Source: Thermodesulfobacteriota bacterium (lineage in GTDB: Bacteria > Desulfobacterota > Desulfobulbia > Desulfobulbales > SURF-16). Taken from it: DNA of 64,000 bases. Numbering within the stretch: position 1 is the stretch's first letter; every line of letters begins with the position of its first letter. The stretch lies in assembly GCA_049323935.1 (NCBI GenBank), contig JBMONN010000004.1, positions 16,486 through 80,485 on the forward strand, given 5' to 3'. The notes under the pieces are model-generated. The model ran no database searches. It was not told the DNA's origin and saw only the letters and a list, made by a program, of their open reading frames with translations. Below are positions 36,227 to 57,394 of the stretch, piece after piece. Position numbers and translations under genes: made by a program.

Positions 36227-36603
36227 CAGAGAAGGCGCTCATGCTTGCCACGGAAGCGGTGAGCCGGGACGATCTGCCGGCCAGGGTGGCGACCCTCAAG
36301 GAACAAGGATACCGCTTTGTCGCCATTACCTGTGTCGGGGTAAAGGAGGGCCGGGCCGAACTGCTGTATCATTTCGACCGGGACCTGCAACTGACCCATC
36401 TGCGGCTGACCGCCGCCGACCGGCCGTTGCCCAGCATCACCCCGGTTTTCGCCGCTGCCTATCTGGCGGAAAACGAGATCCAGGACCAGTTCGGGCTGAC
36501 CTTCGTCGGGCTTGACCCGGACTATGGCGGCAGTCTCTATCTGGAGAAGGCGGCCGGCCCGGCCCCCTTTCGCCGCCGCCTGACGGCAGCAGGGGAGACG
36601 TAA
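36223..36603 (+). CDS. echD: Ech-type hydrogenase subunit D (NuoC-like)
   Basis: ATGA overlap. LLYHF..., AAYLAENEIQDQFGLTFVG is a NuoC/30-kDa-subunit motif. Confidence 0.7.
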   Translation: MTEKALMLATEAVSRDDLPARVATLKEQGYRFVAITCVGVKEGRAELLYHFDRDLQLTHLRLTAADRPLPSITPVFAAAYLAENEIQDQFGLTFVGLDPDYGGSLYLEKAAGPAPFRRRLTAAGET

Positions 36604-37680
36604 ATGGCGAAAACCGTCATGCCGTTCGGCCCCCAGCATCCGGTGCTGCCCGAGCCGGTCCAGCTTAATCTGACCAGCGAGGAGGAGATCGTCACCAGCG
36701 CCACCCCGGTCTTCGGCTATGTCCACCGCGGACTGGAAAAGCTGGTGGAGGTCCGCGATATCCGCCAGATGATCCAGGTGGTGGAGCGGGTCTGCGGTAT
36801 CTGCTCGATGATGCATGCCCTCGTCTACTGCCAGGCGATCGAGGAGCTGCTCGGCATTGCGGCGCCGCCGCGCGCCCGTTATCTGCGGGTCATCTGGTCC
36901 GAGCTCCACCGGCTGCACAGCCATCTCCTCTGGCTCGGCCTCTTTGCCGACGCCATGGGCTTTGAAAGCCTGTTCATGCAGATCTGGAAGGCGCGGGAGC
37001 GGATCATGGACATTAACGAGGCCACCGCCGGCAACCGGGTCATTTTGTCGGTCAATGTGCTGGGCGGAGTGCGGCGCGATCTTGACCGCGGCCAGATAGA
37101 CATGGTGCGAACCGTGTTGGTCGGGCTGGAGGCGGAGATGAAAAAAATCAACCGGGTGCTGTCTGCCGATCCCACCGTGCGCCGCCGCACCAGCGGCAAG
37201 GGGGTGCTGGCGAATGGGCAGGCGCGGGAGCTTGGCTGCGTCGGCCCGGTCCTGCGGGCAAGCGGGGTGGTCGAGGATATGCGGCAGCTCGGCTACGCCG
37301 CCTATGGCGAACTTGATTTCACCCCGGTGGTGGAAGAGGAGGGCGATTGCCACGCCCGTTGCCGGGTCCGGAGCCGCGAGGTGCTGCAATCCATCGATCT
37401 CATCCGCCAGGCCTTGGCTTGCCTGCCGGCCGGCGCGCTGGCGGTCCCGGCCAAGGGCAATCCAGTCGGCGAGATGACGGTCCGGGTCGAGCAGCCGCGC
37501 GGCGAGTGTCTTTACTATATCCGGGCCGATGGGAGCAAATATCTGGAACGGCTGCGCATCCGCACCCCGACCTTTGCCAACCTGCCGGCCCTGGCCCTCA
37601 TGCTGCCCGGCATGGAGCTGGCCGATGTGCCGGTGGTGCTGCTCTCCATCGACCCGTGCCTCAGTTGCACGGAGCGGTGA
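36604..37680 (+). CDS. echE: Ech-type [NiFe] hydrogenase large subunit E (NuoD-like)
   Basis: N-terminal Ni-binding motif RVCGICSMMH and C-terminal DPCLSCTER are both present. It therefore reads as a true group-4 hydrogenase rather than a complex-I NuoD. FGPQHP near the N-terminus. Confidence 0.85.
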   Translation: MAKTVMPFGPQHPVLPEPVQLNLTSEEEIVTSATPVFGYVHRGLEKLVEVRDIRQMIQVVERVCGICSMMHALVYCQAIEELLGIAAPPRARYLRVIWSELHRLHSHLLWLGLFADAMGFESLFMQIWKARERIMDINEATAGNRVILSVNVLGGVRRDLDRGQIDMVRTVLVGLEAEMKKINRVLSADPTVRRRTSGKGVLANGQARELGCVGPVLRASGVVEDMRQLGYAAYGELDFTPVVEEEGDCHARCRVRSREVLQSIDLIRQALACLPAGALAVPAKGNPVGEMTVRVEQPRGECLYYIRADGSKYLERLRIRTPTFANLPALALMLPGMELADVPVVLLSIDPCLSCTER

Positions 37681-37747
37681 CGGCGGATGAGGTCGGGTTG
37701 CAAAGGATTGACGCGGGCATGCGGTGAAAAAAGGAGAGAGAGACGAG

Positions 37748-38836
37748 ATGGCGCAGGGCAGGAGAAAAAAAGGGAAAAAAAGGCCGGGCGCCAGCATCAA
37801 GACCGGCATGTCGCCGGGAACCATGGCCTTCATCGGCGAGGAAAAGGTTGCGCGGACCCGCATTGATCTCATCCACTACAGCCCGACCTCCTTCACCGAG
37901 AACGAGGACGTCACGGTGGCGGCGTGCCGGGAGCAGGCGCGCGCCCCCGGCGTCACCTGGATCAATGTCAGCGGCATCCATGATCTTGGGCTGATCGAGA
38001 GCCTCGGCAAGGCCTTCGATTTCCATCCACTGACCCTGGAGGACGTCGTCAACACGACCCAGCGTCTCAAGGTCGAGGAGTTCGCCGGGTATCTCTTCAT
38101 CGTCATGAAGATGCTGACCTGGCGCGACGAGATCTCCTCCTCGGTGGACATCGAAAACGTCAGCCTGATCCTCGGCAAAAATTATGTCATCTCCTTTCTG
38201 GAGCGGGAAGGCGAGGTCTTTGCCACGGTGCGCAACCGCCTGCGGCTGGCCAAGGGCCGTATCCGTTCCATGCAGGCCGATTATCTGGCCCACGCCCTGA
38301 TGGATGCAGTGGTCGATCATTATTATATCGTGGTCGAGCGGTTCGGTGACCGGATCGACGAGATCGACGATCAGATTCTCGCGGAGCCGGGGCCGGAAAA
38401 CATCAAGGAGATTCATCTCCTCAAACGGGACATCATCACGGTGCGCAAGGCGCTCTGGCCGCTGCGCGAGGTCATCGGCGCCCTCGAAAAGGGCGAGAGT
38501 GCCCTGCTGCGGCCGGAAAGCAGGGTCTACTGGCGCGATCTCTACGACCACATCATCCAGATCATCGACATGGTCGATACCTTCCGCGACATCCTCGTCG
38601 GCATGCATGACAGCTATCTGTCCGCCATGAGCATTCGGATGAACGAGGTCATGCAGGTGCTGACCACGATCGCTACCATTTTCATTCCCCTGACCTTTAT
38701 CGTCGGCATCTATGGCATGAACTTCGCTTACATGCCGGAACTGCAATGGCCGCTGGGGTACCCGCTGATCTGGGTGGTCATGCTGCTGATCGGCGGCGGC
38801 CTCTTTGCCTTTTTCCGGCGAAAGAAATGGATTTGA
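37748..38836 (+). CDS. corA: CorA-family divalent cation (Mg2+/Co2+/Ni2+) channel
   Basis: Two C-terminal TM helices with the YGMNF signature (IVGIYGMNFAYMPEL) and a basic tail FFRRKKWI. A cytoplasmic alpha/beta + coiled-coil domain precedes them. ATG 37748 follows AAAGGAGAGAGAGA. Confidence 0.85.
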   Translation: MAQGRRKKGKKRPGASIKTGMSPGTMAFIGEEKVARTRIDLIHYSPTSFTENEDVTVAACREQARAPGVTWINVSGIHDLGLIESLGKAFDFHPLTLEDVVNTTQRLKVEEFAGYLFIVMKMLTWRDEISSSVDIENVSLILGKNYVISFLEREGEVFATVRNRLRLAKGRIRSMQADYLAHALMDAVVDHYYIVVERFGDRIDEIDDQILAEPGPENIKEIHLLKRDIITVRKALWPLREVIGALEKGESALLRPESRVYWRDLYDHIIQIIDMVDTFRDILVGMHDSYLSAMSIRMNEVMQVLTTIATIFIPLTFIVGIYGMNFAYMPELQWPLGYPLIWVVMLLIGGGLFAFFRRKKWI

Positions 38837-38875
38837 CAAGGCCGCCCTGGCCGCTGCGCAAGGAGAACAACCATC

Positions 38876-39259
38876 ATGTTCATGACCCCGCTGGTGCTGA
38901 AAAATCTCTTCACCCGCCCGGCCACCAGGCCCTATCCGCCCGAGGAACGCCCGCCGTTCTCCGGGGCGCGGGGGAGTCTGGTCAATACTGCTTCGACCTG
39001 CATCCTCTGCGGCATGTGTGCCAGGGTTTGCCCCTCCCGTTGTATTACAGTGCGGCGCCGGGACGGCATGTGGGAATACGATCCCTTTGCCTGCGTCTAC
39101 TGCGGCATCTGCGCGGAAAACTGTCCCACCGGCAGTCTGCTGCAAAGAGAGCAGCGTCCAGGGATTGCGCTTGATCGGCAGCGAATTGTGCTGGAGATCC
39201 CGGCGGCAAACAAGCAGAGCCAGGGGGGCGGAGGTCCTGCTGCCGCCGCACCGGAATAG
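38876..39259 (+). CDS. echF: Ech-type hydrogenase subunit F (NuoI-like 2x[4Fe-4S] ferredoxin)
   Basis: CILCGMCARVCP and CVYCGICAENCP motifs. Size and N-terminus (LKNLFTRPATRPYP) are typical of EchF/HycF. Confidence 0.8.
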   Translation: MFMTPLVLKNLFTRPATRPYPPEERPPFSGARGSLVNTASTCILCGMCARVCPSRCITVRRRDGMWEYDPFACVYCGICAENCPTGSLLQREQRPGIALDRQRIVLEIPAANKQSQGGGGPAAAAPE

Positions 39260-39262: not shown

Positions 39263-40327
39263 CTATTTTGCCTTGGCGGCTGAAGTGAGCAAATCTAGCG
39301 TTTTCCCGCTGCATTCCTTCTCCCGCGCCCAGTCCAGGGCGGTTTTGCCGGTTTCATCAGCCAGTTCGGCGCGGGCGCCATTGCTGAGCAGCGCGGCAAG
39401 GATCTCACTCCTGTCGCCGTAGGCAGCGGCCATCAGGGCGGTGAAGCCGCCCGTGCTGGCGGCATTGACCTCCGCCCCGGCGGCAAGCAGCTGCTCGACC
39501 TGCTCAAGCAGACCGGAGCCGGCGGCCAGCATCAGGGCCGTTGCCCCGCGGCTGTCCCGGCCATTGACCTGAGCGCCACGGGTCAGAAGCAGGGCCGCAG
39601 CAGCGACCTGGTTGCGGCCCACGGCAAACATCAGGGGCGTGCGGCCGGCGGAGGAGAGGGCGTTTGCCGCGGCACCGCTGTCCAGCAGGAGTTCCATGGT
39701 CGCAACGTGTCCTTCCGCCGCGGCGCTCATCAGCGGCGTGACGCCGCCCTTGTCGGGCCGGTTGACGTCGGCGCCTGCCTTGACCAGGGCGGCAATCGAG
39801 CCGGTGTCCCCCCGTTCCGCCGCGGCCCGCAGGGCGGAGATGCCGCCTGGGAAGGCTGCTTCCGGGTCGGCGCCCCGGTCCAGCAGCTCGGCGACGATGC
39901 CGCCGTGGCCGGCGCCAACGGCAAAGAGCAGGGCCGGCAGCTGTTCCCGGTCAACAGCAGTGATGGCAGCGCCACGATCGAGAAGAAGCCGAACCGTGTC
40001 ACGGCTGCCGGAGCGCGCCGCCAGCATCAGCGGGCTGCGACCGGCCTGGTCACGGTCGTTGACCCCGGCCCCGGCATTAATGAGAAGCCGGGCCATTTCC
40101 TCCCGGCCGGCGCGGGCGGCAAGCAGCAGCGGGGTTGTCCCATCCGGGGTGCGGGTGTTGACATCTGCTCCGCCGGCCAGCAGTTCTATTGCCTCCTTGC
40201 CCTGGCCGAGGCGAACGGCACGGAAGAGATCGTCGGCGGTGCTGCGGCCCTGCACCGGAGCAGGCAGACAGCAGAGCAGCAGCAGGCCGAGTCCGCATAT
40301 CCTGGCCAGTAAAAGATCGTACCGCAT
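39263..40327 (-). CDS. Secreted ankyrin-repeat protein (~10 repeats)
   Basis: Signal peptide MRYDLLLARICGLGLLLLCCLPAPVQG. Repeated G.TPLM.AA..G....V..LL..GA..N units run throughout. Confidence 0.8.
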   Translation of the reverse strand: MRYDLLLARICGLGLLLLCCLPAPVQGRSTADDLFRAVRLGQGKEAIELLAGGADVNTRTPDGTTPLLLAARAGREEMARLLINAGAGVNDRDQAGRSPLMLAARSGSRDTVRLLLDRGAAITAVDREQLPALLFAVGAGHGGIVAELLDRGADPEAAFPGGISALRAAAERGDTGSIAALVKAGADVNRPDKGGVTPLMSAAAEGHVATMELLLDSGAAANALSSAGRTPLMFAVGRNQVAAAALLLTRGAQVNGRDSRGATALMLAAGSGLLEQVEQLLAAGAEVNAASTGGFTALMAAAYGDRSEILAALLSNGARAELADETGKTALDWAREKECSGKTLDLLTSAAKAK

Positions 40328-41739
40328 CAGCCGTTTTGCTCCGCAACCGCATCAGCAGCCTTTGCCGCCCCGTCGCGCGCTTCGGCGTCCTGGAGGAGGC
40401 GGACCACCCGATCATAGCCCTGCTCCGATGCCCAGGTTTTCGCACTCTTGCCGCTGCTGTCGGTAAGGCTGACTCTGGCACCGCGCTCGATGAGCAGACG
40501 AACCGTCTCTTCATGGCCGGCCCAGGAGGCGAACATCAGGGCGGTGGAACCGTGACTGTCTGTCAGGTTGAGGTCCGCTCCGCTATCGAGCAGCATGGCG
40601 ACGGTCGGAGTCAGGCCGCAACTTGCCGCCAGGGCCAGGGCGGTGACGCCACGGCTGTCCCTGGCGTCAATCTCGGCGCCGCCAGCCACCAGCAGCCGGG
40701 CCGCCTCCGTATGCCCGTGACTGGCGGCATACATCAAGGCGGTGCGGCCCGCCTTATTGCGGATGGCCACATCCGCCTGTTGATGATGTAAAAGGAGGCC
40801 GACCACCTCGTGATGCCCTTCGCCGGCCGCGCTCATCAGCGCGGTGACCATGCCGCGGTTGGTCGTGTTGATCCGTGCCCCGTGCCGGAGGAGGGCGGTA
40901 ACCGATTTCATGTCGCCGCGCCGGGCCGCGCTGATCAGAGGCGTCATGTCGCCGATGAAGGTGACATTCGGATCTGCCCCGTTTTCCAGCAGCACCGCCA
41001 CCGTTTCGCCGTGCATGCCGAGAACGGCACAGACCAGCGGGGTAAGTCCATCCTTGTTTTTGGTGTTGACCTGGGCCTTGGCGGCGAGGAGGATTTTCAC
41101 CCCTTCGGTCAGACCGTGTTTGGCCATGAACATCAGCACGCTGTTGCCGTCCGCGTCCATGGCATGAAGATCAGCGCCGGCGTTGCTGAGCAGTTCAACG
41201 AGGCGGCCGCTGCCCTTTTCATTGACAAACATCAGGGCCGTGGCCCCGTTCCGGGCCCGGGCGCGGACATCGACGCCTTTGACGAGCAGTATTTCCACCA
41301 CGGCGGTGTTGCCGTTTTTTACCGCCCACATCAGGGCGGTGATACCTTCGCCGTCCGCCACATGGGGGCTGGCGCCATGGTCGAGGAGCAGGCGAACGAT
41401 CTCATGGCGACCGCCGCGGACCGCCTCAAGCAGGATTGTTGTTTCATCCGGGTAACGGAGGTTGACATCGGCGCCGGCCGCTATCAGCGCCTCGACTATG
41501 GCTGGATTGCCGCCGGCCACCGCCAGTCGCAGGGGATTGTGTCCTATGGCGTCCGGAGTGTTGCAATCAGCGCCGGCGGCAAGCAGACGGCTGACCGTGG
41601 CCTGGTCGCCGTTGCGAACCGCCTGCATGATTTCCTGGTTCGGCGCGGTGGCGGCAGCGACGTGTGACACGAGACAGAAGAGGACGAAGGACAGGGCAAT
41701 GCCTGCTGCTGCCCGGGTTCTTTTTTGATATGGTTTCAT
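40327..41739 (-). CDS. Secreted ankyrin-repeat protein (~13 repeats)
   Basis: Start taken at MKPYQKRTRAAAGIALSFVLFCLVSHVAAA (signal peptide). The longer ORF to 42036 overlaps the upstream gene. Ankyrin consensus repeats run throughout. 1-nt overlap with the downstream ankyrin gene. Confidence 0.8.
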   Translation of the reverse strand: MKPYQKRTRAAAGIALSFVLFCLVSHVAAATAPNQEIMQAVRNGDQATVSRLLAAGADCNTPDAIGHNPLRLAVAGGNPAIVEALIAAGADVNLRYPDETTILLEAVRGGRHEIVRLLLDHGASPHVADGEGITALMWAVKNGNTAVVEILLVKGVDVRARARNGATALMFVNEKGSGRLVELLSNAGADLHAMDADGNSVLMFMAKHGLTEGVKILLAAKAQVNTKNKDGLTPLVCAVLGMHGETVAVLLENGADPNVTFIGDMTPLISAARRGDMKSVTALLRHGARINTTNRGMVTALMSAAGEGHHEVVGLLLHHQQADVAIRNKAGRTALMYAASHGHTEAARLLVAGGAEIDARDSRGVTALALAASCGLTPTVAMLLDSGADLNLTDSHGSTALMFASWAGHEETVRLLIERGARVSLTDSSGKSAKTWASEQGYDRVVRLLQDAEARDGAAKAADAVAEQNG

Positions 41740-41767
41740 CAGTCGTTTCCTCGCGTAAAGGGAATTG

Positions 41768-41807
41768 CCGGGCCGGAGGAAGACCGGCAGGACTTCCTCC
41801 GGCCCGG
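41768..41807 (-). other. Strong intergenic stem-loop (15-bp perfect stem) between the Cys/Asp-repeat gene and the ankyrin genes
   Basis: CCGGGCCGGAGGAAG-(10 nt)-CTTCCTCCGGCCCGG. On the sense (minus) strand only a weak T-tract follows. It could be a partial terminator or an RNA-stabilising element. Confidence 0.5.
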
Positions 41808-41824
41808 GCAGGGGCGTGTGCCGG

Positions 41825-43828
41825 TTACCGGCAGGCCCGGTTCTTGGCGCAGTTCGGATCGGCACAGTCGATGAGGCCGTCGCCGTCGTTATCGAGTCCG
41901 TCATTACAGACCTCATCCTTGAGGCAGTTGAGGGCGCCGGCGCAATCCGGATCAGCGCAGTCGATGAGGTTGTCGAGATCGTTGTCGATAGTGTCGGAGC
42001 AGTTCTCGACATAGACGCCGGTGCAGTTCGGGGCATCGAGACAGTTCTGATCGTTGCAGTCGATCAGGTAATCGCCGTCGTTGTCGATGCCGTCGGTGCA
42101 GACCTCGGCGCCGGTCTCGCAGCCGCCTTCACCGAGGCAGTCGGGATCGTGGCAATCAACATAGCCGTCGTCGTCGTTGTCGAGTTCGTCGCCGCAGGCC
42201 GTTTCCGGACACCAGGTGCCGGAGCAGTCGCCAATGTCGGCGCAATCGATCAGTCCATCGCCGTCATTGTCGATGCCGTCGGCGCACAGCTCGGTCTGGA
42301 TCGTGGCGGCAGGATCTTCATATTCGATATGAAGCACCGCGTTGTAAACCACGGTGGGCCGGTACTCGCCTTTGATAAAGAGGGCAAGATCGAGGTCCTG
42401 GGAGAGCGGCATGCCCTCCACATAGGAGATGCCGTCCTGAACCGTGTCGGCCGGATCGTCCGGGTTGAGGTCGAGCAGGGCGTTCCAGTTGGCGCTCCAG
42501 ATGAGCGGCGACGGTCCGTCCTTCCAGTCCAGCAGGTTGACGGTGGTGGTGGTGTCGGTGCCCACCGGATATTTGATGTAATCGGCCTCAAAGGGCAACT
42601 CCATGCAGTCCTCGGTGGGGATTTCAAGCGAGGGGATGTTCTGGCCGAACTTGGAAGACTTCAGCCGGTAGCGCGGTCCTTTGCCGGTAACCGGATCGCT
42701 CTCGTAGGGATCGCGGTCCATCGTGGTGTACCAGGCATTGGAGGTGCCGGTCTGCAGATCGGCCGACCAGCCGCCCGCGTCGTAGTCGCCGTCGCCGTCG
42801 AGATCCACCGGCGGGTTGGCAAGGAGCGGATCCCGGAACAGGGTGCCGGCCGGAATGAAGTCACCATCACCCTCGAAGCAGTCGCGGTCCGAGGTAAGCA
42901 CCCCCAGGGTGTTGATGTAACCCGGCAGCCGGCCGGTGGCGCCCTCGTTTTCGAGATCCTCTGGCCGAATCTGGTCATTGGGGCTGTTTGACACCTTATG
43001 GTTGACGGTGAGGATGGCCTTGGTGACCCGATAGTTGGCGCCCGGCACCTTCCAGGCATCCGGCACATTGAGACGGGCCAGCAGGCGAACCTCACCCGGC
43101 CGTTTGTGGCGGGTGCCCCAGCGGAAGAGGAGTTTGCCGTCATCCTTCTTGGTGACCGCATAATCGCGACCGATGGCGATGTTGATGAGATCCGATTCGT
43201 TTGGTTGGAGATTGAGCGGATCGACCGGGGTGGACGGATCGTCCGGGAAAAAAAGTTCATCCGACAGGGGCTGGCAGACCGTGTCCCACATCGGATCGGT
43301 GTAGAAATAGGGGATCTTCTCCGAACAGGAGAGGATGTGTTCCATCACCACGTACTGCTCGGCGGCGCACTTGACGGTGTCCCCGTTCATGCCGGCGCAG
43401 ACGCTGCCTTTGCGGCCGCCGGTCAGATAGTAGGGGGTATCGACGCTTGAGACAACGACACCGAGCTGGGTGCCCTGCAGATCCACATAGTTGCCGATCC
43501 ATCCTTCCTGGAAGACGCCGTCACGCGGCTTGCGTTCGGCGCCGACAAAATCGGTGACGGTGAAGGAAAAATCGGAATCAATGGGCCAGACCGTCATGCC
43601 GGTGAAGATATCGACATAGGGCTCGTTGCCCGGGCAGGGCAGGCTGGTGCAGATGATCGAATTATCCTGGGCATAGGTGGTGCCGGTAAAGGTGCCCAGG
43701 GTGTCGGTCATGGAAAAGACGTGTTTTTCGGACGCATGCTTTATGATGGCAGCCGAGGCCAGGTCGGCTTGGGCAAAGAGGCCCAGGATTCCGGCGCAGG
43801 CGATGCCGCTGTGTATATGCCACTTCAT
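41825..43828 (-). CDS. Secreted protein: ~500-aa unknown N-terminal domain + 5 Cys/Asp-rich (thrombospondin-type-3-like / MopE-like) repeats (paralog C)
   Basis: Start at MKWHIHSGIACAGILGLFAQADLASA (signal peptide), with AAGGAG 9 nt upstream. C-terminal repeats: CADGIDNDGDGLIDCADIGDC, CGDELDNDDDGYVDCHDPDC, CTDGIDNDGDYLIDCNDQNC, CSDTIDNDLDNLIDCADPDC and CNDGLDNDGDGLIDCADPNC. Confidence 0.8.
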   Translation of the reverse strand: MKWHIHSGIACAGILGLFAQADLASAAIIKHASEKHVFSMTDTLGTFTGTTYAQDNSIICTSLPCPGNEPYVDIFTGMTVWPIDSDFSFTVTDFVGAERKPRDGVFQEGWIGNYVDLQGTQLGVVVSSVDTPYYLTGGRKGSVCAGMNGDTVKCAAEQYVVMEHILSCSEKIPYFYTDPMWDTVCQPLSDELFFPDDPSTPVDPLNLQPNESDLINIAIGRDYAVTKKDDGKLLFRWGTRHKRPGEVRLLARLNVPDAWKVPGANYRVTKAILTVNHKVSNSPNDQIRPEDLENEGATGRLPGYINTLGVLTSDRDCFEGDGDFIPAGTLFRDPLLANPPVDLDGDGDYDAGGWSADLQTGTSNAWYTTMDRDPYESDPVTGKGPRYRLKSSKFGQNIPSLEIPTEDCMELPFEADYIKYPVGTDTTTTVNLLDWKDGPSPLIWSANWNALLDLNPDDPADTVQDGISYVEGMPLSQDLDLALFIKGEYRPTVVYNAVLHIEYEDPAATIQTELCADGIDNDGDGLIDCADIGDCSGTWCPETACGDELDNDDDGYVDCHDPDCLGEGGCETGAEVCTDGIDNDGDYLIDCNDQNCLDAPNCTGVYVENCSDTIDNDLDNLIDCADPDCAGALNCLKDEVCNDGLDNDGDGLIDCADPNCAKNRACR

Positions 43829-43981
43829 TTCTGTTTTCTCCTTCTTCATTTTCGTTGGTCCTGAAGAATGGTTCCGAGTTTTCCCTCCCGGAAAATCTTG
43901 CCTGTCATCCGGCAAGCAATGACGCGGAACCTGCAAGCGAAAAACTCCGTCCTCCCGTGCGCGTTAGATGGGACACATTGT

Positions 43982-43997
43982 GGCAAGGAATGTGCCA
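43982..43997 (-). promoter_or_regulatory. Sigma54 promoter of paralog C
   Basis: The minus strand reads TGGCACATTCCTTGCC, i.e. consensus TGGCAC-N5-TTGC with exact spacing. It lies ~155 nt upstream of the ATG and is embedded in a 10-bp inverted repeat CATTGTGGCA-N7-TGCCACAATG (43975-44001). Confidence 0.7.
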
Positions 43998-44198
43998 CAA
44001 TGTAAATAGAAGGGCGCTGGGGCGCCGCTGCTTGGGGTGGCGGGCAAGGGAAAAGGGATGGGGGGGGAGGGTGCGACAATATGCCGCAGCCGGGAAGGGC
44101 TGCGGGATGGGGGCAAGGGGGCGAAAAGGGCTGGCAGGAAGGGGGGATCGTCAGGAACTGGTCGCCAGTCCGCAAGTTTCTGGCGGGTTGATGATCAA

Positions 44199-44233
44199 TA
44201 AAAAAGGGGAGCCGGTTACGGCTCCCCTTTTTT
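44199..44233 (-). terminator. Rho-independent terminator of paralog D (bidirectional hairpin)
   Basis: AAAAAAA-GGGGAGCCG-GTTA-CGGCTCCCC-TTTTTT, 20 nt after the stop of the 44253 gene on the minus strand. Confidence 0.8.
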
Positions 44234-44252
44234 ATTGGCCGAAGGGGCCTGG

Positions 44253-47192
44253 TTATCTGCGGCTGATAAGTTTGCAGGCCTTGTCCTTGGCGCAGTCGGG
44301 ATCGAGACAGTCGATCAGGCTGTCGCCGTCGTTGTCAAAGGTATCGGTGCACATGCCCTTTTCCGAGGCCGCGCAACCAGGGGCGCCGGCGCAGGCCGGG
44401 TCGGCGCAGTCGATCAGGCCGTTGCCGTTGTTGTCGATGCGATCGTTGCAGATTTCCTGGGTACAGCCGGGCTGGCTGGCGCAATCGGGATCATTGCAGT
44501 CAACCAGGCCGTCACCGTCGTTGTCCACCGCATCGGAGCACAGTTCGGGGGTCGGCAGGCAGAGCGGACTGTTGAAACACTCGGAGTCGGCGCAGTCAAT
44601 GGCGCCGTCGCCGTCGTTGTCGACGCCGTCGCCGCAGTTTTCCGGATTGCAGGCCGGGGTGACGGCGCAGAGCGGGTCGGCGCAGTCGATGATACCGTCG
44701 CCGTTGTTGTCGATGCCGTCGTTGCAGATCTCCGTGGAGCAGACCGGCGCGTCGACACAGTCCGGATCGGCGCAGTCAATGAGGCCGTCATGATCGTTGT
44801 CGAGCTGGTCGCTGCAGTTCTCCGGCAGCTGCTGGCAGTTGATGTCACTGAAGCAGTTGTTGTCGGCGCAGTCGGTGAACCCGTCCCCGTCGTTGTCAAG
44901 GCCGTCGATGCAGTTCAGTTCCGGATTACAGTAGGCAACGGTGGCGCAGTCCGGATCGACGCAGTCCACCATGCCGTTGCCGTCGTTGTCCACCCCGTCG
45001 TAGCAGATCTCGCCGGTGCAGGCGCTGGTGGCCTCGCAGTCCGGATCGGAACAATCGACCAGACCATCGTCGTCGTTGTCAGCTCCGTCGCCGCAGAACT
45101 CCATGGAGTTCAGACAGATCGGCAGATTCTTGCAGTCCGAATCGGCGCAGTCGATGGTCAGGTCACCGTCATTGTCGATCAGGTCGTCACAGATCAGCTC
45201 CGGATTGCAGGCCTGGGCATCTACGCAGTCCGGATCAACGCAGTCGATGAGGCCGTCATTGTCGTTGTCGACGGCATCCGAGCAGTTTTCCGTCACACAG
45301 ATCGGCGCGTCGGCGCAATCCGTATCATTGCAGTCGATGAGGCCGTCGAGATCGTCATCCGTGCCGTTGGAGCAGATTTCGCCGCCCCGGCAGGTGACGA
45401 AGGTCTTGCAGTCCGGGTCCATGCAGTCGATCAGCCCGTCCTGGTCGTCGTCGATGGTGTTGACGCAGTTCTCGTCCGGGAAGCTGCATTCGATGTAATC
45501 GGCGCAGTCGGGATCCTCGCAGTCAACGTAGCCGTCGCCGTCGTTGTCGCTGCCGTCGAAGCAGTACGTTTCCGGACACCAGGCCCCGAAGCAGTCGGTG
45601 TCGGCGCAGTCGATGTAGAGATCATTGTCGTTGTCGATGCCGTCGGTGCAGAGTTCAATCTGCTCTGTCACCGCAGGATCCTCGTACTCGATGAGCAGGG
45701 TGGCGTTGTAGACCACAGTCGGTTTGTAGTCACCCTTGATAAAGACCGCCAGGTCGAAGTCCTGGGTCAGCGGCATTCCTTCCACATAGGAAACGCCGTC
45801 CGGCACCGTGTCGGTGGGATCATAGGGGTTGAGATCGTTGAAATTATTCCAGTTGGCGCTCCAGGCAAGCGGTGAGAGTCCGTCCTTCCAGTCGAGCAGG
45901 TTGATCCTGGTGGTGGTCGGTTCGCCGGCCGGATATTTGAGGTAGTCGTAGGTGATCGGCGGTTCCATGCAGTTGACGGTCGGGATGTCAAGCGACGGCA
46001 GGTTCTGGCCGAACTTGCCGGATTTCAGCCGGTAACGCGGCCCTCTGCCGGTCACCGGGTCCGGCTCGAAGGGATCGCGGTCGGTGGTGGTGTACCAGGC
46101 GTTGGTGGTGCCGGTCTGCAGGTCCGCCGACCAGCCGCCGCCGTCGATGACGCCGTCGCCGTTGCCGTCCACCGGCGGATTTGCCAGGGCCGGATCGCGG
46201 AACAGGGTGCCGGCCGGGATGAAATGACCGTCGCCCTCGAAACAGTCCTTGTCCGAGGTCAGGACGCCCAAGGTGTTGATGTAGCCGGGCAGCCGGCCGG
46301 TGGCCGCCTCATTCTCGAAATCCTCGGGCCTGATCTGGTCGTTGGGGCTGTTCGAGATCTTGTGGTTGACGATCAGCTCTGCCCGGGTGACCCGGTAGTT
46401 GGCGCCGGGCACCTTCCAGGCATTGGGGACCGGGAAGGAGGCGTAAAGCCGCATTTCGCTGGGCCGCTTGTGGAGCGAGCCCCAGCGGAAGAGAAACTTG
46501 CCGTCGTCCTTTTTGGTGATGGAATAGTCACGACCGGTGGCGATGTTGACCAGGTCGGATTCGTTGGTCGCCAGGGTGAAGGGGTCCACCGGGGTGGTCG
46601 GATCGTCCGGCTTGGCGAGCACGTCGGACAGGGGTTGGCAGAGCGACTGCCAGTACGGGTCGGTGTAAAAATAGGGGATCTTTTCCGTGCAGGTGAGGAT
46701 GTGCTCCATCACCGTGTACTGCTCGGCCGAACATTTGGTCTGGGCGCCGCCCAGTCCCGCGCAGATGCTGCCGCGGACGATGCCGGTCTTGAAGGCCGGA
46801 GTCTGGGGGTTGGAAATGACGACGCCGATCAGGCGGCCGTTGGCGTTGATGTAGTCGCCGATCCAGCCGTCATCGTAGATACCGTCGCGGGTTTTGCGCT
46901 CGGCACCGACGAAATCGGTGACGTGGAAGGCGAATTCGGTGTCAACCGGCTGCATGGTAACGCCGGTGAATTTGTCGATAAAGGGTTGCTCGCCGGTGCA
47001 GGTCTCCCCCTCGCAGACAATGGTCGGATCCTGAACGTAGCCGGTGCCGTCGAACTGACCAAGCAGATCGCTTTTGGAAAAGGTGTGCTGCGGTGACTGA
47101 TAGGAAACAACCGCCGCGGATGCAACCGTTCCACCGGCAAAGAGACCCCATAATGCCGCGCAGGCAGCACTGCTGTATATGCGCCACTTCAT
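44253..47192 (-). CDS. Secreted protein: ~500-aa unknown N-terminal domain + 15 Cys/Asp-rich repeats (paralog D)
   Basis: Start at MKWRIYSSAACAALWGLFAGGTVASA, with AAGGAGGA 9 nt upstream. The N-terminal domain is collinear with paralog C, including near-identical stretches (HVTDFVGAERK, NSPNDQIRPED, ATGRLPGYINTLGVLTSD.DCFEGDG). Fifteen repeats of C-x-[DN]-x-x-D-[ND]-[DN]-x-[DN]-x-x-x-D-C-x-D-x-x-C occupy nt 44256-45655. Confidence 0.8.
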   Translation of the reverse strand: MKWRIYSSAACAALWGLFAGGTVASAAVVSYQSPQHTFSKSDLLGQFDGTGYVQDPTIVCEGETCTGEQPFIDKFTGVTMQPVDTEFAFHVTDFVGAERKTRDGIYDDGWIGDYINANGRLIGVVISNPQTPAFKTGIVRGSICAGLGGAQTKCSAEQYTVMEHILTCTEKIPYFYTDPYWQSLCQPLSDVLAKPDDPTTPVDPFTLATNESDLVNIATGRDYSITKKDDGKFLFRWGSLHKRPSEMRLYASFPVPNAWKVPGANYRVTRAELIVNHKISNSPNDQIRPEDFENEAATGRLPGYINTLGVLTSDKDCFEGDGHFIPAGTLFRDPALANPPVDGNGDGVIDGGGWSADLQTGTTNAWYTTTDRDPFEPDPVTGRGPRYRLKSGKFGQNLPSLDIPTVNCMEPPITYDYLKYPAGEPTTTRINLLDWKDGLSPLAWSANWNNFNDLNPYDPTDTVPDGVSYVEGMPLTQDFDLAVFIKGDYKPTVVYNATLLIEYEDPAVTEQIELCTDGIDNDNDLYIDCADTDCFGAWCPETYCFDGSDNDGDGYVDCEDPDCADYIECSFPDENCVNTIDDDQDGLIDCMDPDCKTFVTCRGGEICSNGTDDDLDGLIDCNDTDCADAPICVTENCSDAVDNDNDGLIDCVDPDCVDAQACNPELICDDLIDNDGDLTIDCADSDCKNLPICLNSMEFCGDGADNDDDGLVDCSDPDCEATSACTGEICYDGVDNDGNGMVDCVDPDCATVAYCNPELNCIDGLDNDGDGFTDCADNNCFSDINCQQLPENCSDQLDNDHDGLIDCADPDCVDAPVCSTEICNDGIDNNGDGIIDCADPLCAVTPACNPENCGDGVDNDGDGAIDCADSECFNSPLCLPTPELCSDAVDNDGDGLVDCNDPDCASQPGCTQEICNDRIDNNGNGLIDCADPACAGAPGCAASEKGMCTDTFDNDGDSLIDCLDPDCAKDKACKLISRR

Positions 47193-47274
47193 TTTCTTTC
47201 GTCCTCCTTCGGAATTTTTCATTTGAAAACATGTCGTATCTAACGCGACCGCCGAGAGGACGGTGAAATGTTAA

Positions 47275-47290
47275 AGCATGATTCGTGCCA
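47275..47290 (-). promoter_or_regulatory. Sigma54 promoter of paralog D
   Basis: The minus strand reads TGGCACGAATCATGCT (TGGCAC-N5-ATGC, exact GG-N10-GC spacing), ~85 nt upstream of the ATG at 47192. Confidence 0.6.
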
Positions 47291-47363
47291 CATTGTTGCA
47301 TGGCTGGCGGGGGGAGACTGTCCATCGATTGTCCCAACAGGCTTGATATCGGCTTGACTCCAT

Positions 47364-47379
47364 GCAGGAAAATTTGCCA
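47364..47379. repeat. 16-bp direct repeat GCAGGAAAATTTGCCA, copy 1 (candidate activator site)
   Basis: Perfect repeat of 47424-47439, exactly 60 bp apart. It contains the near-palindrome GGAAAATTTGCC. It lies ~75-165 bp upstream (minus-strand sense) of the sigma54 promoter at 47275-47290. Confidence 0.45.
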
Positions 47380-47423
47380 TACTCAGGGCAGGAACAATCA
47401 CAGGCATATCTGGATGACGTCGC

Positions 47424-47439
47424 GCAGGAAAATTTGCCA
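47424..47439. repeat. 16-bp direct repeat GCAGGAAAATTTGCCA, copy 2
   Basis: See copy 1. A third partial copy, GATTTTGCCA, follows at 47443-47452. Confidence 0.45.
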
Positions 47440-47564
47440 GACGATTTTGCCATGGCCGCCGCCCTCATTCCCTTTTTGCCGGCTTTTCAGGTGTCGGTTT
47501 ATGATACCCCGCCAGAAAGCTGTTTCCGCTTTCGTTCTGGAGTCTCGCCCGTGCAGGAGGTTGC

Positions 47565-48539
47565 ATGCTGACAGGACTTTTTCGTGTTGGTCATTCTGTT
47601 CTCGCTTCCTTCATGATCCTTTTGGGGCTGCTGGCCGGCTGTGCCGGCGATGCCGGCACCCCCCTCCGCGTCGGCACCAACATCTGGATCGGCTATGAAC
47701 CCCTCTATCTGACCCGTCACTTGCAATATCTCGACGAAGATCAAGTCCATCTCGTCGAGTTCACCTCCAATACCGATTCCATCCATGCCTTTCGGCAGGG
47801 GGTGCTGGACGCCGCGGCCCTGACCCTGGACGAGGCGTTCCGGCTGGCCGACCAGGGGGTGGCGTTCCGGATTGTTCTTGTCATGGATATCTCAAGCGGG
47901 GCCGATGTCATCCTCGCCAATCCGGCGATCAGGGATGTGGCCGATCTCCGCGGGCAACGAATCGGGGTGGAGAGTACGGCGGTCGGCGCCTACATGCTGT
48001 CCCGCGCCCTGGAAAAAAGTGGCCTTTCCCTTCAGGATGTCGAGCTGGTCCCCCTGGAGATCACCGAGCATGCGGCTGCCTTTGCCGCAGGCTCGGTCGA
48101 TGCCCTGGTGACCTTTGAGCCGGTGCGGTCGAAACTGCTGCGCCAGGGGGCGCAGCAGCTCTTTGCCAGCAGCGAGATCCCGGACGAGATTGTCGATGTG
48201 CTCATTGTTCGACCCGAGGTGCTCAGCGAGCGGGAAGATGATGTCCGGGAGCTGTTGCGTGGCTGGTTTCGCAGTCTGTCGTACCTCGATCAGCACCATG
48301 ATGAGGCGCTGGCTGCCATGGAACAGCGTATGGGGCTGGACAGCGTCAGCATTGCCGCTAGTCTGGACGGGGTCTTGTTTGCGTCCATTGAAAAAAACAG
48401 GGAGATGCTGGCCGGCGACAATCCACTCCTTGTCAGAAACGGGCGACAACTGCTTGCTCATATGGTGAAAAAAAGAATGATCCGGCAGGAGTTTGCCATC
48501 GAGCCATTGCTGAGCGTCGATCTGCTTCAGGGCTTATGA
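47565..48539 (+). CDS. NMT1/THI5-like (SsuA/TauA-type) periplasmic substrate-binding lipoprotein
   Basis: Lipoprotein signal LLGLLAGCAG. LRVGTNIWIGYEPLYL, DLRGQRIGVESTAVGAYML and DALVTFEP are typical of nitrate/sulfonate/bicarbonate-type binding proteins. Confidence 0.7.
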   Translation: MLTGLFRVGHSVLASFMILLGLLAGCAGDAGTPLRVGTNIWIGYEPLYLTRHLQYLDEDQVHLVEFTSNTDSIHAFRQGVLDAAALTLDEAFRLADQGVAFRIVLVMDISSGADVILANPAIRDVADLRGQRIGVESTAVGAYMLSRALEKSGLSLQDVELVPLEITEHAAAFAAGSVDALVTFEPVRSKLLRQGAQQLFASSEIPDEIVDVLIVRPEVLSEREDDVRELLRGWFRSLSYLDQHHDEALAAMEQRMGLDSVSIAASLDGVLFASIEKNREMLAGDNPLLVRNGRQLLAHMVKKRMIRQEFAIEPLLSVDLLQGL

Positions 48540-48629: not shown

Positions 48630-51338
48630 ATGGCGTTTCTGACCCGCGGCGCGCTGCGGACCACTATCCCTCTCTTTCTTTTCCTCTCCACCCTCCTTGT
48701 CGGCTTGCTGTTCTGGGCAGTGAACACGGCCCGGGACAGCCGGGTGCTCGAAGGGCAGGCGGCGGAGAGTGTCAGGGTGCGGCTCAGTCAGGAGGAGCGC
48801 TTTCTTGAATATTTTTTAATCCGCGGCGACCTCAATCAGGTGCAGAAGCGCATTTCCCTGCTCGCCCTCGATCCGCGCATCCGGCACGCCTATCTGCTCT
48901 GCGAGGATGGGGAGATACTCGGCGCCACCCGGCTGGCCATGATCGGCAAACAGGTGGAGACGATCATTCCCGTCCTCTCCGGCCAGGAGCAATTCCTGCT
49001 GCGCGATTATGGGGCCGAGTTTCAGCAGGCCCATGGGCTGGCAACCCACCTCAGCGACGACCGCCGGGGCATTGTCGGCGTCTCCTCGATCCTCGATCTG
49101 CCGTCTCTGCATCATACCGACACCGATCGCGTGGTCCTCTTCCTCTACTATGATCTGGAGTCGGCCAAGGCGGCGGCCTGGCAAGCCCACGCCCGGCATC
49201 TGCTCGAATACGGCGGTTTTCTCACCCTTCTCGCCCTGGGCCTCTGGTTCTTTTTTCAGCACGTGCTGACCCGGCGGGTCGAGATTCTCCGCCGCATGGC
49301 GGGCCGTCTGGCCCAAGGGGATTACACGGCCAGAGCCAATCTCGATGGCAATGACGAGCTGGCCGAGCTGGGGGCGGCCTTTGACCGGATGGCGCAGGAG
49401 CGTCAGGGCATGGAGGAGCAGCTGCATCTGGTACGTGCCTCAATCGACAGCGCCCAGGATGCGATCTGCTGGAGTGATGCCCAGGGGCGATTTCGTTTTG
49501 TCAATGATGCGGCCTGCCGGCTGCTCGGTTACTCGCGGGAGGAGTTGCTTGCCTTGGGGCCCGTTGATATCGATCCGGGACTGGCGCCGGAGCAGTGGCC
49601 TGATCATTGGCAGAGACTGCTGGCGTGCGGCTCCATCAGCCTGGAAACAGAGCTGCGCGCCAAAGACGGCCAGCTCATTCCCGTCGATGTCTCCGCCAAT
49701 ATGGTGACCTGGGCCGAGCAGGTCTACGATTGCGCCTTTATCCGGGATATCCGCGAACGCAAGAATAGCGAGCGCTCACTGCGGTTGGCCAAGGAGGAAT
49801 GGGAACGGACCTTCGATGCCATCGCCGACATCGTCACCATTCTCGATCCGGACGGGTGCATTGTCCGGGCCAACCGCAGGGCCGTGGAAATCTTTGCCGT
49901 CCCTGCCGGTTCCCTGCAGGGGAAATTCTGTTATGAGATCTTCCGGGGGAGTGACAGCCCCTGCGCAGGCTGCCCGGTCCGGCCAGGGGCCGGGGACAGG
50001 GAAATGGTGAGTTGCGAAATCGCCCATGCCATCAGCAACAGGATGTTCCAGGTTTCCCTTTCGCCGATTGTCGATGACGTGAACCGGCTGATCGGCGTGG
50101 TCCATATCGCCAAGGACATCACCGAGCAGAAACAACTGGAGGGACAGCTCCAGCAGGCCCAGAAGATGGAGGCCATCGGCACCCTGGCGGGCGGCATCGC
50201 CCATGATTTCAACAATATTCTTACCCCGATTCTCGGCTATTCGGAAATGGTGCAGGCCGCCCTGCCGCCGGCGAGCCCGGCCGCCGCCGATATCGCCGAG
50301 GTTATCAGGGGCGCGAAGCGGGCCACTGAACTGGTCAAGCAGATTCTCACCTTCAGCCGGCAGACGGACGACAGGCCCCAGCCGCTGAAGGTGCAGTTTG
50401 TCGTCAAGGAGGCCTTGAAGCTGCTGCGTTCCTCCATTCCCGCCACCATTGCCATTCGCCAGCATATCGACGAGAGCTGCCCGGCGGTGCTGGCTAATCC
50501 TGTCCAGATTCATCAGATTGTCATGAACCTCTGCACCAACGCATTTCATGCCATGCGCGAGCAGGGGGGAACGCTCGGCGTTTCCCTGACCGCCTTTGCC
50601 CTGAGCACCAACGATTTGGCCAATAAAATCGGCATCGCCCCCGGTCCTTATATCAGGCTGGAGGTGAGCGATACCGGCCACGGCATCGCCCCCGATATCC
50701 TCGGCAGGATATTTGAACCCTATTTCACCACCAAGACCAAGGGCGAGGGCACCGGACTCGGCCTCTCGGTTGTCCACGGCATCGTCAGCCGGCTGCACGG
50801 TGCGGTGACCGTCTACAGTGAAGCGGGCACGGGCTCGACATTTCATGTCTATCTGCCGACCATTGCCGCCGGCCCGGTGCCGTGGCAGGAGGAGGGGGCA
50901 AGCGATGATCCCCGCAGCCGGGGAGATGAAAGGGTGTTGGTGGTGGATGATGAAAAGGTCATTGTTTCTCTGTTGCGGCAGATGCTGGCCGGTCTCGGTT
51001 ATGCGGTGTCCGCCTTCACGGACAGCCGGGAGGCACTGGCCGCCTTTGCTGCGGAGCCGGAAGACTGCGACCTGGTCATCACCGACATGACCATGCCGAA
51101 CCTGACCGGGGTACAGCTGTGCCGGGAGATGAAGGCGATCCGGCCGGACATTCCGGTTGTCCTCTGCACCGGCTACAGTGAACTGATTGATCGGGAAAAG
51201 GCGCTGGCGCTCGGGATCAGCGAGTACATCATGAAACCGGTGCTGCAGCGGGAGCTGGCCCGAATCGTTCGCCACCTGCTGGATAAAAGGCACGACGGTG
51301 AGGAGCGAGGCCATCGCGACGGGGAAGCTGATCGATAA
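48630..51338 (+). CDS. Hybrid sensor histidine kinase (periplasmic-like domain, HAMP, 2 PAS, HisKA, HATPase, REC)
   Basis: Two TM helices flank a ~170-aa ectodomain. HAMP (RMAGRLAQGDYTARANLDGNDELAELGAAFDRM). One PAS domain carries FCYEIFRGSDSPCAGCP. H-box GGIAHDFNNILTPI. G-boxes DTGHGIAPD and GTGLGLSVVHGIV. REC (VLVVDDE..., VITDMTMPNLTG, KP). Confidence 0.85.
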   Translation: MAFLTRGALRTTIPLFLFLSTLLVGLLFWAVNTARDSRVLEGQAAESVRVRLSQEERFLEYFLIRGDLNQVQKRISLLALDPRIRHAYLLCEDGEILGATRLAMIGKQVETIIPVLSGQEQFLLRDYGAEFQQAHGLATHLSDDRRGIVGVSSILDLPSLHHTDTDRVVLFLYYDLESAKAAAWQAHARHLLEYGGFLTLLALGLWFFFQHVLTRRVEILRRMAGRLAQGDYTARANLDGNDELAELGAAFDRMAQERQGMEEQLHLVRASIDSAQDAICWSDAQGRFRFVNDAACRLLGYSREELLALGPVDIDPGLAPEQWPDHWQRLLACGSISLETELRAKDGQLIPVDVSANMVTWAEQVYDCAFIRDIRERKNSERSLRLAKEEWERTFDAIADIVTILDPDGCIVRANRRAVEIFAVPAGSLQGKFCYEIFRGSDSPCAGCPVRPGAGDREMVSCEIAHAISNRMFQVSLSPIVDDVNRLIGVVHIAKDITEQKQLEGQLQQAQKMEAIGTLAGGIAHDFNNILTPILGYSEMVQAALPPASPAAADIAEVIRGAKRATELVKQILTFSRQTDDRPQPLKVQFVVKEALKLLRSSIPATIAIRQHIDESCPAVLANPVQIHQIVMNLCTNAFHAMREQGGTLGVSLTAFALSTNDLANKIGIAPGPYIRLEVSDTGHGIAPDILGRIFEPYFTTKTKGEGTGLGLSVVHGIVSRLHGAVTVYSEAGTGSTFHVYLPTIAAGPVPWQEEGASDDPRSRGDERVLVVDDEKVIVSLLRQMLAGLGYAVSAFTDSREALAAFAAEPEDCDLVITDMTMPNLTGVQLCREMKAIRPDIPVVLCTGYSELIDREKALALGISEYIMKPVLQRELARIVRHLLDKRHDGEERGHRDGEADR

Positions 51339-53193: not shown

Positions 53194-53219
53194 AAATGGC
53201 CGGAAAAGACAGGCGGCAA

Positions 53220-57391: not shown

Positions 57392-57394
57392 CTC

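Follow-up and report, generated by a model that had tools for sequence, protein, structure and literature searches.

Paralogs with a conserved uncharacterised head, calcium-type repeat tails and ankyrin-repeat partner genes in a Desulfurivibrio-like member of the Thermodesulfobacteriota

Introduction

Exported ankyrin-repeat proteins of bacteria are, to our knowledge, few and poorly understood. In Pseudomonas aeruginosa, the exported ankyrin-repeat protein AnkB is encoded directly downstream of its presumed target KatB. The Tle phospholipase of Enterobacter cloacae is neutralised, but also activated, by Tli, a periplasmic ankyrin-repeat lipoprotein (bioRxiv 10.1101/2023.03.28.534661). In the Myxococcus protein TraA, which has a sorting tag, Cys-rich repeats have been proposed to act as the stalk on which a variable, lectin-like head is displayed (PMC6372800). 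The C-rich domain of teneurin-4 comprises 38 residues with the disulfide pattern 1-3, 2-5, 4-6 and coordinates three Ca2+ ions via a ladder of Asp and Asn residues, two of the sites being thrombospondin type 3-like and one resembling a low-density lipoprotein (LDL) receptor A module (PMC9058538); a resemblance between the teneurin motif and 'putative metal-binding motifs' of bacteria had been pointed out before (PMC6425310). Here we describe a locus that combines elements reminiscent of all these systems. It lies in a 64-kb stretch of DNA (hereafter the window) from a Thermodesulfobacteriota bacterium (GenBank assembly GCA_049323935.1, contig JBMONN010000004.1, positions 16,486 to 80,485), and consists of two neighbouring genes, here termed A and B, for paralogous and putatively exported proteins with an N-terminal head and a C-terminal tail of acidic Cys-rich repeats, and of two genes for exported ankyrin-repeat proteins, ank1 and ank2. 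Positions are window coordinates unless given for one of the compared loci, and the start codons of A and B were chosen on the basis of ribosome-binding sites and the conservation of the N-termini in orthologs.

Results

Head Family and Ankyrin Partner Genes

The first 512 residues of B retrieved more than 330 homologs, all of them unnamed or 'hypothetical', and a search of 1.84 billion representative sequences with the head profile returned 337 clusters only, with no remote relatives bridging to another known family. The head had no match in Pfam or NCBIfam when A, B and 49 family members were scanned, and a profile search of the PDB sequences with the family alignment yielded no match. The AlphaFold (AF2) model of the B head is mostly beta-strand, with a predicted local distance difference test score (pLDDT) of 87.4 and a predicted template modelling score (pTM) of 0.85, and a Foldseek comparison of the head model with the PDB and BFVD revealed nothing above a template modelling (TM) score of 0.25. 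A lectin-like head was considered and dropped, because the jelly-roll, lectin, capsid and phage-tail similarities in both collections were at noise level, all with TM <0.25. The first-pass annotation of this DNA had left the N-terminal domain unassigned, and in agreement with it the hidden Markov model and structure-prediction searches came back empty for Pfam, NCBIfam, PDB sequences, PDB folds and BFVD alike. In the family alignment the head contains eight conserved Cys and approximately 50 invariant positions, the block H-x3-N-x-PNDQ-x-RPED-x-ENE being the strongest motif across the family; it coincides with the near-identical block NSPNDQIRPED.ENE.ATGRLPGYINTLGVLTSD.DCFEGDG that had been pointed out at first pass and is present in both A and B. 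Among the invariant residues are H164, K228, D230, H277, N284, Q286, R288, E290, E293-E295, R372 and R386. The head constitutes a small, isolated and uncharacterised family without a fold relative in the searches made. It is of interest as a compact family that spans phyla, with about 340 clusters among 1.8 billion representatives, a confident predicted structure and no annotation.

The head family is genomically coupled to exported ankyrin proteins. An ankyrin gene is located directly downstream and on the same strand in 38 of the 75 head loci with enough flanking DNA, including loci of Vibrio, Photobacterium, Shewanella, Alcanivorax, Acidobacteriota and Desulfobulbales, and only about two ankyrin open reading frames (ORFs) occur elsewhere in approximately 1.2 Mb of flanks. 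A signal-peptide-like N-terminus was found in 43 of 47 of the ankyrin proteins; the products of ank1 and ank2 have one. Head and exported ankyrin protein form a conserved, uncharacterised module, and this module is what the present work chiefly adds; the exported ankyrin genes, the family-wide link between them and the head, and the replacement of the tail in other lineages were all missing from the first-pass annotation. In the window, the gap between gene A and ank1 measures 85 nt, and since no terminator was called between the two, A, ank1 and ank2 are most simply read as one operon. A PADLOC search gave generic ankyrin matches only and none for the heads; therefore the locus is not a known defence system. 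A literature search found no paper on Desulfurivibrio together with ankyrin. The ankyrin partner offers an experimental handle on the head family.

The acidic repeat tail is confined to the closest clade, and most family members lack it. Other heads carry CARDB/DUF11-like immunoglobulin-like, GEVED, TSP3-like or dockerin-like segments, SLH (one homolog with this domain), or no tail at all, and further tails consist of RTX repeats, FG-GAP, H-type lectin, Calx-beta or parallel beta-helix segments; a weak MYXO-CTERM-like tag, below the cut-off, is present on another family member. No catalytic domain recurs among the head fusions. The head may thus be viewed as a portable extracellular module, joined to tails that would serve as extracellular, often Ca2+-dependent, anchoring or adhesion modules. 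Tandem pairs of head paralogs are common in the family. In gammaproteobacterial tandem pairs (L004, L005, L018, L019, L026 and L069 among the compared loci, which bear L numbers), the first paralog usually has a lipobox Cys and the second a plain signal peptide, and the ankyrin gene comes next, often overlapping.

Further observations concern individual branches of the family. An Acidimangrovimonas protein of approximately 1,967 amino acids (aa; L085, 5262-11162) contains two heads in tandem followed by RTX-type Ca2+-binding repeats, an arrangement that hints at a different lineage exporting this head by type I secretion. A subclade of Desulfobulbales (L056, L058, L067, L071 and L078; ~9620-10510) has no ankyrin neighbour, and a perfect (10/10) sigma54 promoter precedes four of its five head genes. 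Its members share a conserved gene of approximately 250 aa directly downstream of the head gene, without an NCBIfam match for the L056 member, and their heads lack profile positions ~185-238. When neighbouring genes were clustered, no family common to many loci emerged beyond ankyrin and two-component genes. Multihaem cytochrome, Fe-S and molybdopterin genes next to some homologs were considered as partners and dropped, as they were inconsistent across loci.

Composition and Identity of the Repeat Tails

All 20 units of the two tails are 27-33 aa long and contain exactly four Cys, 5-12 Asp and Glu, and 0-5 Lys and Arg each; the tails consist of about 23% Asp and are almost devoid of basic residues. 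The NCBIfam model NF033662 (acidic double-disulfide repeat), whose curated cut-off is 41 bits, matched A with 134.7 bits in 5 stretches and B with 414.4 bits in 15 stretches. The same numbers were obtained by parsing the units, and the repeat counts given at first pass hence stand. No paper was found in the literature on the repeat under its NCBIfam name.

The AlphaFold model of the A tail reached a pLDDT of 79 and a pTM of 0.35, the low latter value being expected because the units sit like beads on a string. Teneurin C-rich domains were the only meaningful PDB neighbours of this model. Its Foldseek alignment with 7plp_B has a root-mean-square deviation of 1.3 Å over 29 columns, 52% identity, a TM score (target) of 0.62 and a probability of 0.85, with a weak E-value (0.04-0.12) because the domain is short. 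Independently of the model, phmmer against the PDB matched teneurin-4 (7plp_A) at E = 3.9e-6, and teneurin-2 and teneurin-m as well. The phmmer alignment retains the Ca2+-ligand positions D840, D843, N844, D845, D847, D851, D854 and D856; the ligand residues of teneurin-4 were taken from PMC9058538 and the motif ExxCx(D/N)xxDx(D/E)xDxxxDCxxx(D/E)C...C from PMC6425310. Judged by these alignments, the tail unit is homologous to a structurally defined Ca2+ module, and by analogy calcium is the metal supported by structural data.

The first-pass annotation had likened the unit to thrombospondin type 3 repeats and the MopE motif. This was right in kind, the motifs being related and of the calcium type, but the Pfam models TSP_3 (PF02412) and MopE (PF11617) do not match A or B, in which no family of Pfam reached E<=0.1, the Foldseek and phmmer matches of the tail included neither a thrombospondin nor a MopE structure, and teneurin offers the best structural comparison. 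A search with the B tail matched the repeat in more than 3,900 proteins. Many of them are S1 peptidases or c-type cytochromes or contain PPC, P-domain, SLH or dockerin segments; as a few carry PF11617, the NF033662-like and MopE repeat types are related. The module type of the tail is already known, and the teneurin C-rich domain is its best structural reference. Tandem arrays of a bacterial relative of this domain bear on the bacterial ancestry of teneurin ectodomains.

Two Fixed Tail Lengths

The threefold difference in repeat number had been taken at first pass as a sign of repeat expansion or contraction. Ongoing change of this kind is refuted by three observations: the units are diverged (58-76% DNA identity to each other within B), they are matched by position in orthologs, and the protein lengths are almost constant. 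In the unit-by-position matching with orthologs from the metagenome-assembled genome (MAG) MAG127 and from Desulfurivibrio SURF_16, 15/15, 14/15 and 15/15 units corresponded for B and 5/5 and 5/5 for A. Full-length relatives of at least 90% identity were drawn from assemblies at NCBI, JGI and ENA that are independent of each other: of the eight A proteins, seven have 667 aa and one has 665, and all five B proteins have 979 aa. The heads are 79-91% identical among A-type and 77-90% among B-type proteins, compared with 66-69% between A and B. They thus group by type, and the A/B duplication therefore predates these lineages. The duplication is ancient and the array lengths are evolutionarily fixed, which suggests that two stalk lengths may be maintained by selection. 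A and B are a natural pair for asking whether function is set by how long a calcium-binding stalk is, with 5 units in one protein, 15 in the other and both numbers fixed in evolution.

The MAG127 locus (L001, 3010-9386) harbours two B-type copies of 974 and 998 aa with 99% identical heads, a recent duplication added to the ancient A/B pair. These copies differ at the C-terminal end, where the second finishes with an extra Cys-rich segment (...CSDFTDKTSCRDAGCSWSNKTGTCS).

Gene Pair and Export Signals

Two minus-strand ORFs were recovered at 41825-47192, the place given at first pass. Their products are identical to NCBI proteins MFZ5758258.1 (A) and MFZ5758259.1 (B), both labelled 'hypothetical protein' and from a Thermodesulfobacteriota MAG; in the species collection, a Desulfurivibrio MAG comes closest, at 90% identity. 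A and B are 64% identical overall (BLASTP), and their heads, collinear over approximately 490 aa, are 69% identical. Gene B is preceded by the ribosome-binding site GGAGGA, 9 nt 5' of its ATG at 47192. By eye, the N-termini of both proteins (MKW...GLFAQADLASA/A in A and MKW...GLFAGGTVASA/A in B, the slash marking the cleavage site) have a basic n-region, a hydrophobic core, an A-S-A/A cleavage motif and no lipobox, and A and B thus would be exported via Sec and processed by signal peptidase I. The earlier description of the two as exported paralogs is borne out by these features. A hairpin followed by a T-run begins 16 nt past the stop of gene B and separates B from A; gene B is therefore regarded as monocistronic. 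A scan of 41000-48000 against Rfam gave sub-threshold matches only, all of them at this terminator hairpin.

Regulatory Signals

Each gene is preceded by a predicted sigma54 promoter of its own (Table 1), as had been proposed at first pass, and the additional evidence favours this assignment. Both promoters are correctly oriented and lie approximately 100-170 nt upstream of the start codons. Orthologs have sigma54 sites with 8-9/10 matching positions at equivalent places, and the four closest genomes share the promoter region down to its details. Family-wide, sites with at least 9/10 matches occur in 17% of the upstream regions versus 2% of the reverse complements and 0.5% of shuffled sequences, and are concentrated in the Desulfobulbales. 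The gene A promoter is set inside a perfect 11-nt inverted repeat at 43975-44003 (ACATTGTGGCA / TGCCACAATGT), and the extended -24 region ACAWTGTGGCA is kept in orthologs.

An enhancer-like palindrome lies further upstream of gene A, and a family version of it, GCGGCAAATTGTCGCAC (GCGNCAA-N-TTGNCGC), is found 100-250 nt upstream in related loci. Across 206 loci, exact matches to the 14-mer GGCAAATTGTCGCA were confined to the regions upstream of head-family genes in L001, L010 and L011; the palindromes are located at 6036-6143 and 9515-9644 in L001, at 1881-1894 in L010 and at 10609-10622 in L011. Given their position and their likeness to the gene A palindrome, the two 37-nt repeats upstream of gene B may be a diverged pair of candidate enhancer sites. 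As far as can be judged from the alignments, both sigma54 and enhancer-like signals are conserved.

Every gene of the A and B types (window, L001, L008, L010 and L011) has a bipartite element of the form TCTAACGCG-N3-8-GAGGAC immediately behind its sigma54 promoter, at approximately +3 to +26. No chance matches are expected in the window, and the orientation of the element is opposite between A-type and B-type genes. In B-type leaders, CGUCCUC can pair with the Shine-Dalgarno sequence GAGGACG, and orthologs show one compensatory change (AGUCCUC with GAGGACU). The resulting anti-Shine-Dalgarno:Shine-Dalgarno helix is contained in the minimum-free-energy folds of the B-type leaders with weak z-scores (-0.8 and -1.35); because of these scores and of the single compensatory change, a function of the leader as RNA is unproven. 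No Rfam family matches the element, and a metagenome scan with TCTAACGCG-N2-8-GAGGAC, which is too loose a pattern, produced chance matches only, none adjoining a head gene.

A hybrid histidine kinase gene is located divergently from gene B and is a candidate for the sensor of the regulatory pathway. It is 43-51% identical to kinases adjoining head genes in three other Desulfobulbales lineages (L065, L067 and L071), and in L056 and L078 a kinase and a sigma54 activator with a GAFTGA motif directly follow the head gene. The combination of enhancer palindrome, sigma54 promoter and leader element provides a clean target for finding the cognate activator.

Other Features of the Window

The features of the locus are compiled in Table 1. 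Elsewhere in the window, the region 8860-14459 encodes a HAMP histidine kinase, an NtrC-type sigma54 activator and a TPR protein of 766 aa. Of the two flanks, 32977-39259 and 51556-62691, one encodes Mrp/complex-I-like and NiFe-hydrogenase-like subunits, CorA and a 4Fe-4S ferredoxin, and the other a chemotaxis cluster with three methyl-accepting chemotaxis proteins (MCPs) and a CheA with a CheW domain. The orthologous locus of MAG127 is also near an MCP gene and a CheW gene.

Table 1. Positions of genes, protein segments and predicted regulatory elements of the locus in window coordinates.
Feature	Position	Strand	Characteristics	Basis
Gene A	41825..43828	-	Putatively exported 667-aa short-stalk paralog; ATG 43828, MKWHIHS...	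ORF list, ribosome-binding site
Signal peptide of A	43751..43828	-	aa 1-26, ...DLASA/A	Inspection
Head of A	42287..43750	-	aa 27-514; 69% identical to B head, 79-91% to A-type orthologs	
Tail units of A	41828..42286	-	5 acidic double-disulfide units	NF033662, sequence, AF2 tail model, Foldseek to 7PLP
Gene B	44253..47192	-	Putatively exported 979-aa long-stalk paralog; ATG 47192, MKWRIYS...	ORF list
Signal peptide of B	47115..47192	-	aa 1-26, ...TVASA/A; kept in orthologs	Inspection
Head of B	45651..47114	-	aa 27-514; uncharacterised family, 8 conserved Cys	
Tail units of B	44256..45650	-	15 acidic double-disulfide (teneurin C-rich-like) Ca2+-type units	NF033662, sequence, phmmer
Terminator after gene B	44196..44237	-	Perfect 19-bp inverted repeat, G+C-rich inner part as stem, then T-run; intrinsic type	
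ank1	40327..41739	-	Exported ankyrin-repeat protein, 470 aa; signal peptide MKPYQKRTRAAAGIALSFVLFCLVSHVAAA	Pfam Ank, E down to 2e-78
ank2	39263..40327	-	Exported ankyrin-repeat protein, 354 aa; start overlaps ank1 stop by 1 nt	
Hairpin between gene A stop and ank1	41773..41802	-	10 bp, without T-run	Read from sequence
Predicted sigma54 -24/-12 promoter of gene A	43983..43997	-	TGGCACATTCCTTGC; 10/10, only exact TGGCAC-N5-TTGC in 64 kb	
Predicted sigma54 -24/-12 promoter of gene B	47276..47290	-	TGGCACGAATCATGC; 9/10, one mismatch	
Enhancer-like palindrome of gene A	44071..44087	-	GCGGCATATTGTCGCAC (GCGNCAA-N-TTGNCGC), centred at ~-108	
37-nt direct repeat upstream of gene B	47346..47442	-	Two copies 60 nt apart; cores TGGCAAATTTTCCTGC at 47363-47378 and 47423-47438, ~-107 and ~-167	
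Leader element of gene A	43949..43968	-	TCTAACGCG-N5-GAGGAC, same direction as gene	
Leader element of gene B	47239..47261	+	TCTAACGCG-N8-GAGGAC, inverted relative to gene; ~+3 to +26 of inferred transcript	
NMT1-like periplasmic binding protein	47565..48539	+	Just before the kinase gene	Pfam
Hybrid histidine kinase	48630..51338	+	HAMP-PAS-HisKA-HATPase-REC; divergent from gene B	Pfam domains

Discussion

The explanation that we favour, with a probability of roughly 0.5, is that the locus encodes a calcium-stiffened extracytoplasmic assembly for binding or adhesion, which has an ankyrin partner and is under the control of sigma54 and an enhancer. According to this model, a Desulfurivibrio-like member of the Thermodesulfobacteriota would co-regulate a pair of exported proteins that arose by an ancient duplication, together with the two exported ankyrin-repeat proteins. 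By homology, each module of about 30 aa would be locked by the disulfides C1-C3 and C2-C4 and could bind up to three Ca2+ via the conserved Asp/Asn ladder, and the arrays of 5 and 15 units would form acidic, calcium-stiffened stalks of two fixed lengths. The heads would be the functional binding part, the same head being attached to the envelope or secreted by different tails elsewhere. A and B would reach the cell surface, and the exported ankyrin proteins may be periplasmic binding partners of the heads that serve as chaperone, assembly factor or regulator. Outside the cytoplasm, the assembly would most likely bind, adhere or form a matrix in a calcium-dependent manner, and an enhancer-binding activator that acts at the upstream palindromes would turn on its expression.

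Several points weigh against this explanation. A Sec signal alone carries a protein only as far as the periplasm, and neither a sorting tag nor a system for secretion across the outer membrane was found for A or B. Binding of Ca2+ by the A and B tails is inferred by homology. About half of the family loci have no detectable ankyrin neighbour, and the sole activator gene in the window, which encodes an NtrC-type sigma54 activator (10413-11969, GAFTGA at ~11214), is 30 kb away. A ligand, localisation or phenotype is on record for none of the family members, every source giving 'hypothetical protein'. In fold, the head resembles lectin-like jelly rolls no more than noise would (TM <0.25), and many of its approximately 50 invariant positions are polar or charged (His, Asp, Glu, Arg, Lys), with which an enzyme would also be compatible.

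A more far-reaching version of the binding or adhesion assembly is possible, though we consider it doubtful. Head and periplasmic ankyrin protein would then constitute a new extracytoplasmic machine with a new fold and a new activity, in which the head paralogs act as a heteromer and the ankyrin protein is an obligate subunit for assembly or control. The heteromer would be composed of short- and long-stalk forms in the organism studied here and of lipoprotein and soluble forms in gammaproteobacteria, and the machine would extend from the Desulfobulbales to Vibrio and Shewanella and also to Polyangia, Acidobacteriota and Planctomycetes. The inverted leader element, which is anti-Shine-Dalgarno-like in B and Shine-Dalgarno-like in A, might in addition allow opposite post-transcriptional control of the two paralogs from one sequence.

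We regard a different explanation as unlikely: the head could be a secreted hydrolase or toxin, the exported ankyrin proteins its periplasmic inhibitor, immunity protein or activator, and the Ca2+ repeats a stabilising appendage of the kind seen in many secreted proteases. The Tle/Tli precedent from Enterobacter cloacae keeps this combination of enzyme and inhibitor alive, and the richness of the head in invariant polar residues, the very frequent fusion of the repeat to S1 peptidases and other secreted enzymes, and the tight, often translational, coupling of the ankyrin gene to the head gene would all fit it. However, no catalytic family was detected in the head by sequence or fold, the heads are without a PADLOC match, and the examined genes near the locus comprise no type VI secretion system (T6SS), contact-dependent inhibition (CDI) or other delivery genes. 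Moreover, the head is 40-50% identical across phyla, whereas polymorphic toxins usually vary, and its fusion partners elsewhere are adhesion-type and Ca2+-binding modules rather than toxin-delivery domains.

If the tails instead of the heads were the business end, A and B would mainly handle metal, either as periplasmic or surface Ca2+ buffers or as MopE-like scavengers of copper or iron. With tails of about 23% Asp, A and B could by homology hold up to ~15 and ~45 Ca2+, respectively (PMC9058538), and some homologous repeat proteins carry PF11617 or are named as MopE-related; PF11617 itself, however, does not match A or B. All Cys of the units correspond to disulfide positions of teneurin-4, and no His or Met ligands for copper are available. 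As this explanation also leaves the phylum-wide conserved 490-aa head and the ankyrin partner unaccounted for, and most family members lack the acidic tail, it appears improbable. The chances are slimmer still that the two paralogs co-assemble, as structural subunits, into a lattice resembling an S-layer or sheath. In favour of such a lattice, both proteins are acidic, of the Ca2+-binding type, exported and mostly beta-strand, the family often has its paralogs in tandem and one head homolog has an SLH domain; yet control by sigma54 and an enhancer suits conditional rather than constitutively high expression, the head family is rare and patchily distributed, and no sign of lattice formation was seen.

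Comparison with Known Systems

The tails are far above the cut-off of NF033662, with strongly acidic units of four Cys, but this model covers the repeat only and is silent on the head and on function. With thrombospondin type 3 repeats and the MopE motif they have the acidic ladder D-x-D-x-D-G-x-x-D-C in common, although neither PF02412 nor PF11617 matches A or B at E<0.1. The similarity to the teneurin-4 C-rich domain (7PLP) is significant, with approximately 50% identity over 28-30 residues, the Asp/Asn positions of the Ca2+ ligands kept and the first two disulfide pairs retained in the bacterial unit. Teneurin, however, has a single copy with six Cys and three disulfides, in contrast to the arrays of 5 and 15 units with four Cys each found here. 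The bacterial units lack a pair equivalent to C858-C869 and thus would represent a related variant and not the identical domain.

For the architecture as a whole, TraA of Myxococcus is the closest analogy, without implying membership in its family. The proteins share a signal peptide, an N-terminal head and tandem Cys-rich repeats (PMC6372800). They differ in that the A and B heads have no PA14-like Pfam match and no MYXO-CTERM tag (Pfam, NCBIfam), and in that the partner is an ankyrin protein instead of a TraB-like one.

The closest precedent for the exported ankyrin partner is Tli of E. cloacae, which resembles it as an exported ankyrin-repeat protein encoded directly downstream of its presumed target. 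The present locus is distinguished by the absence of a hydrolase family in the A and B heads and of T6SS or CDI genes among the examined neighbours. Compared with both Tle/Tli and KatB/AnkB, the upstream protein of the present locus is neither an alpha/beta-hydrolase lipase nor a catalase, and the ankyrin proteins are long (354-470 aa) and two in number. No function or new mechanism is demonstrated here; set beside these systems, the tail is of a known module type, and the head-ankyrin module is an uncharacterised and conserved one.

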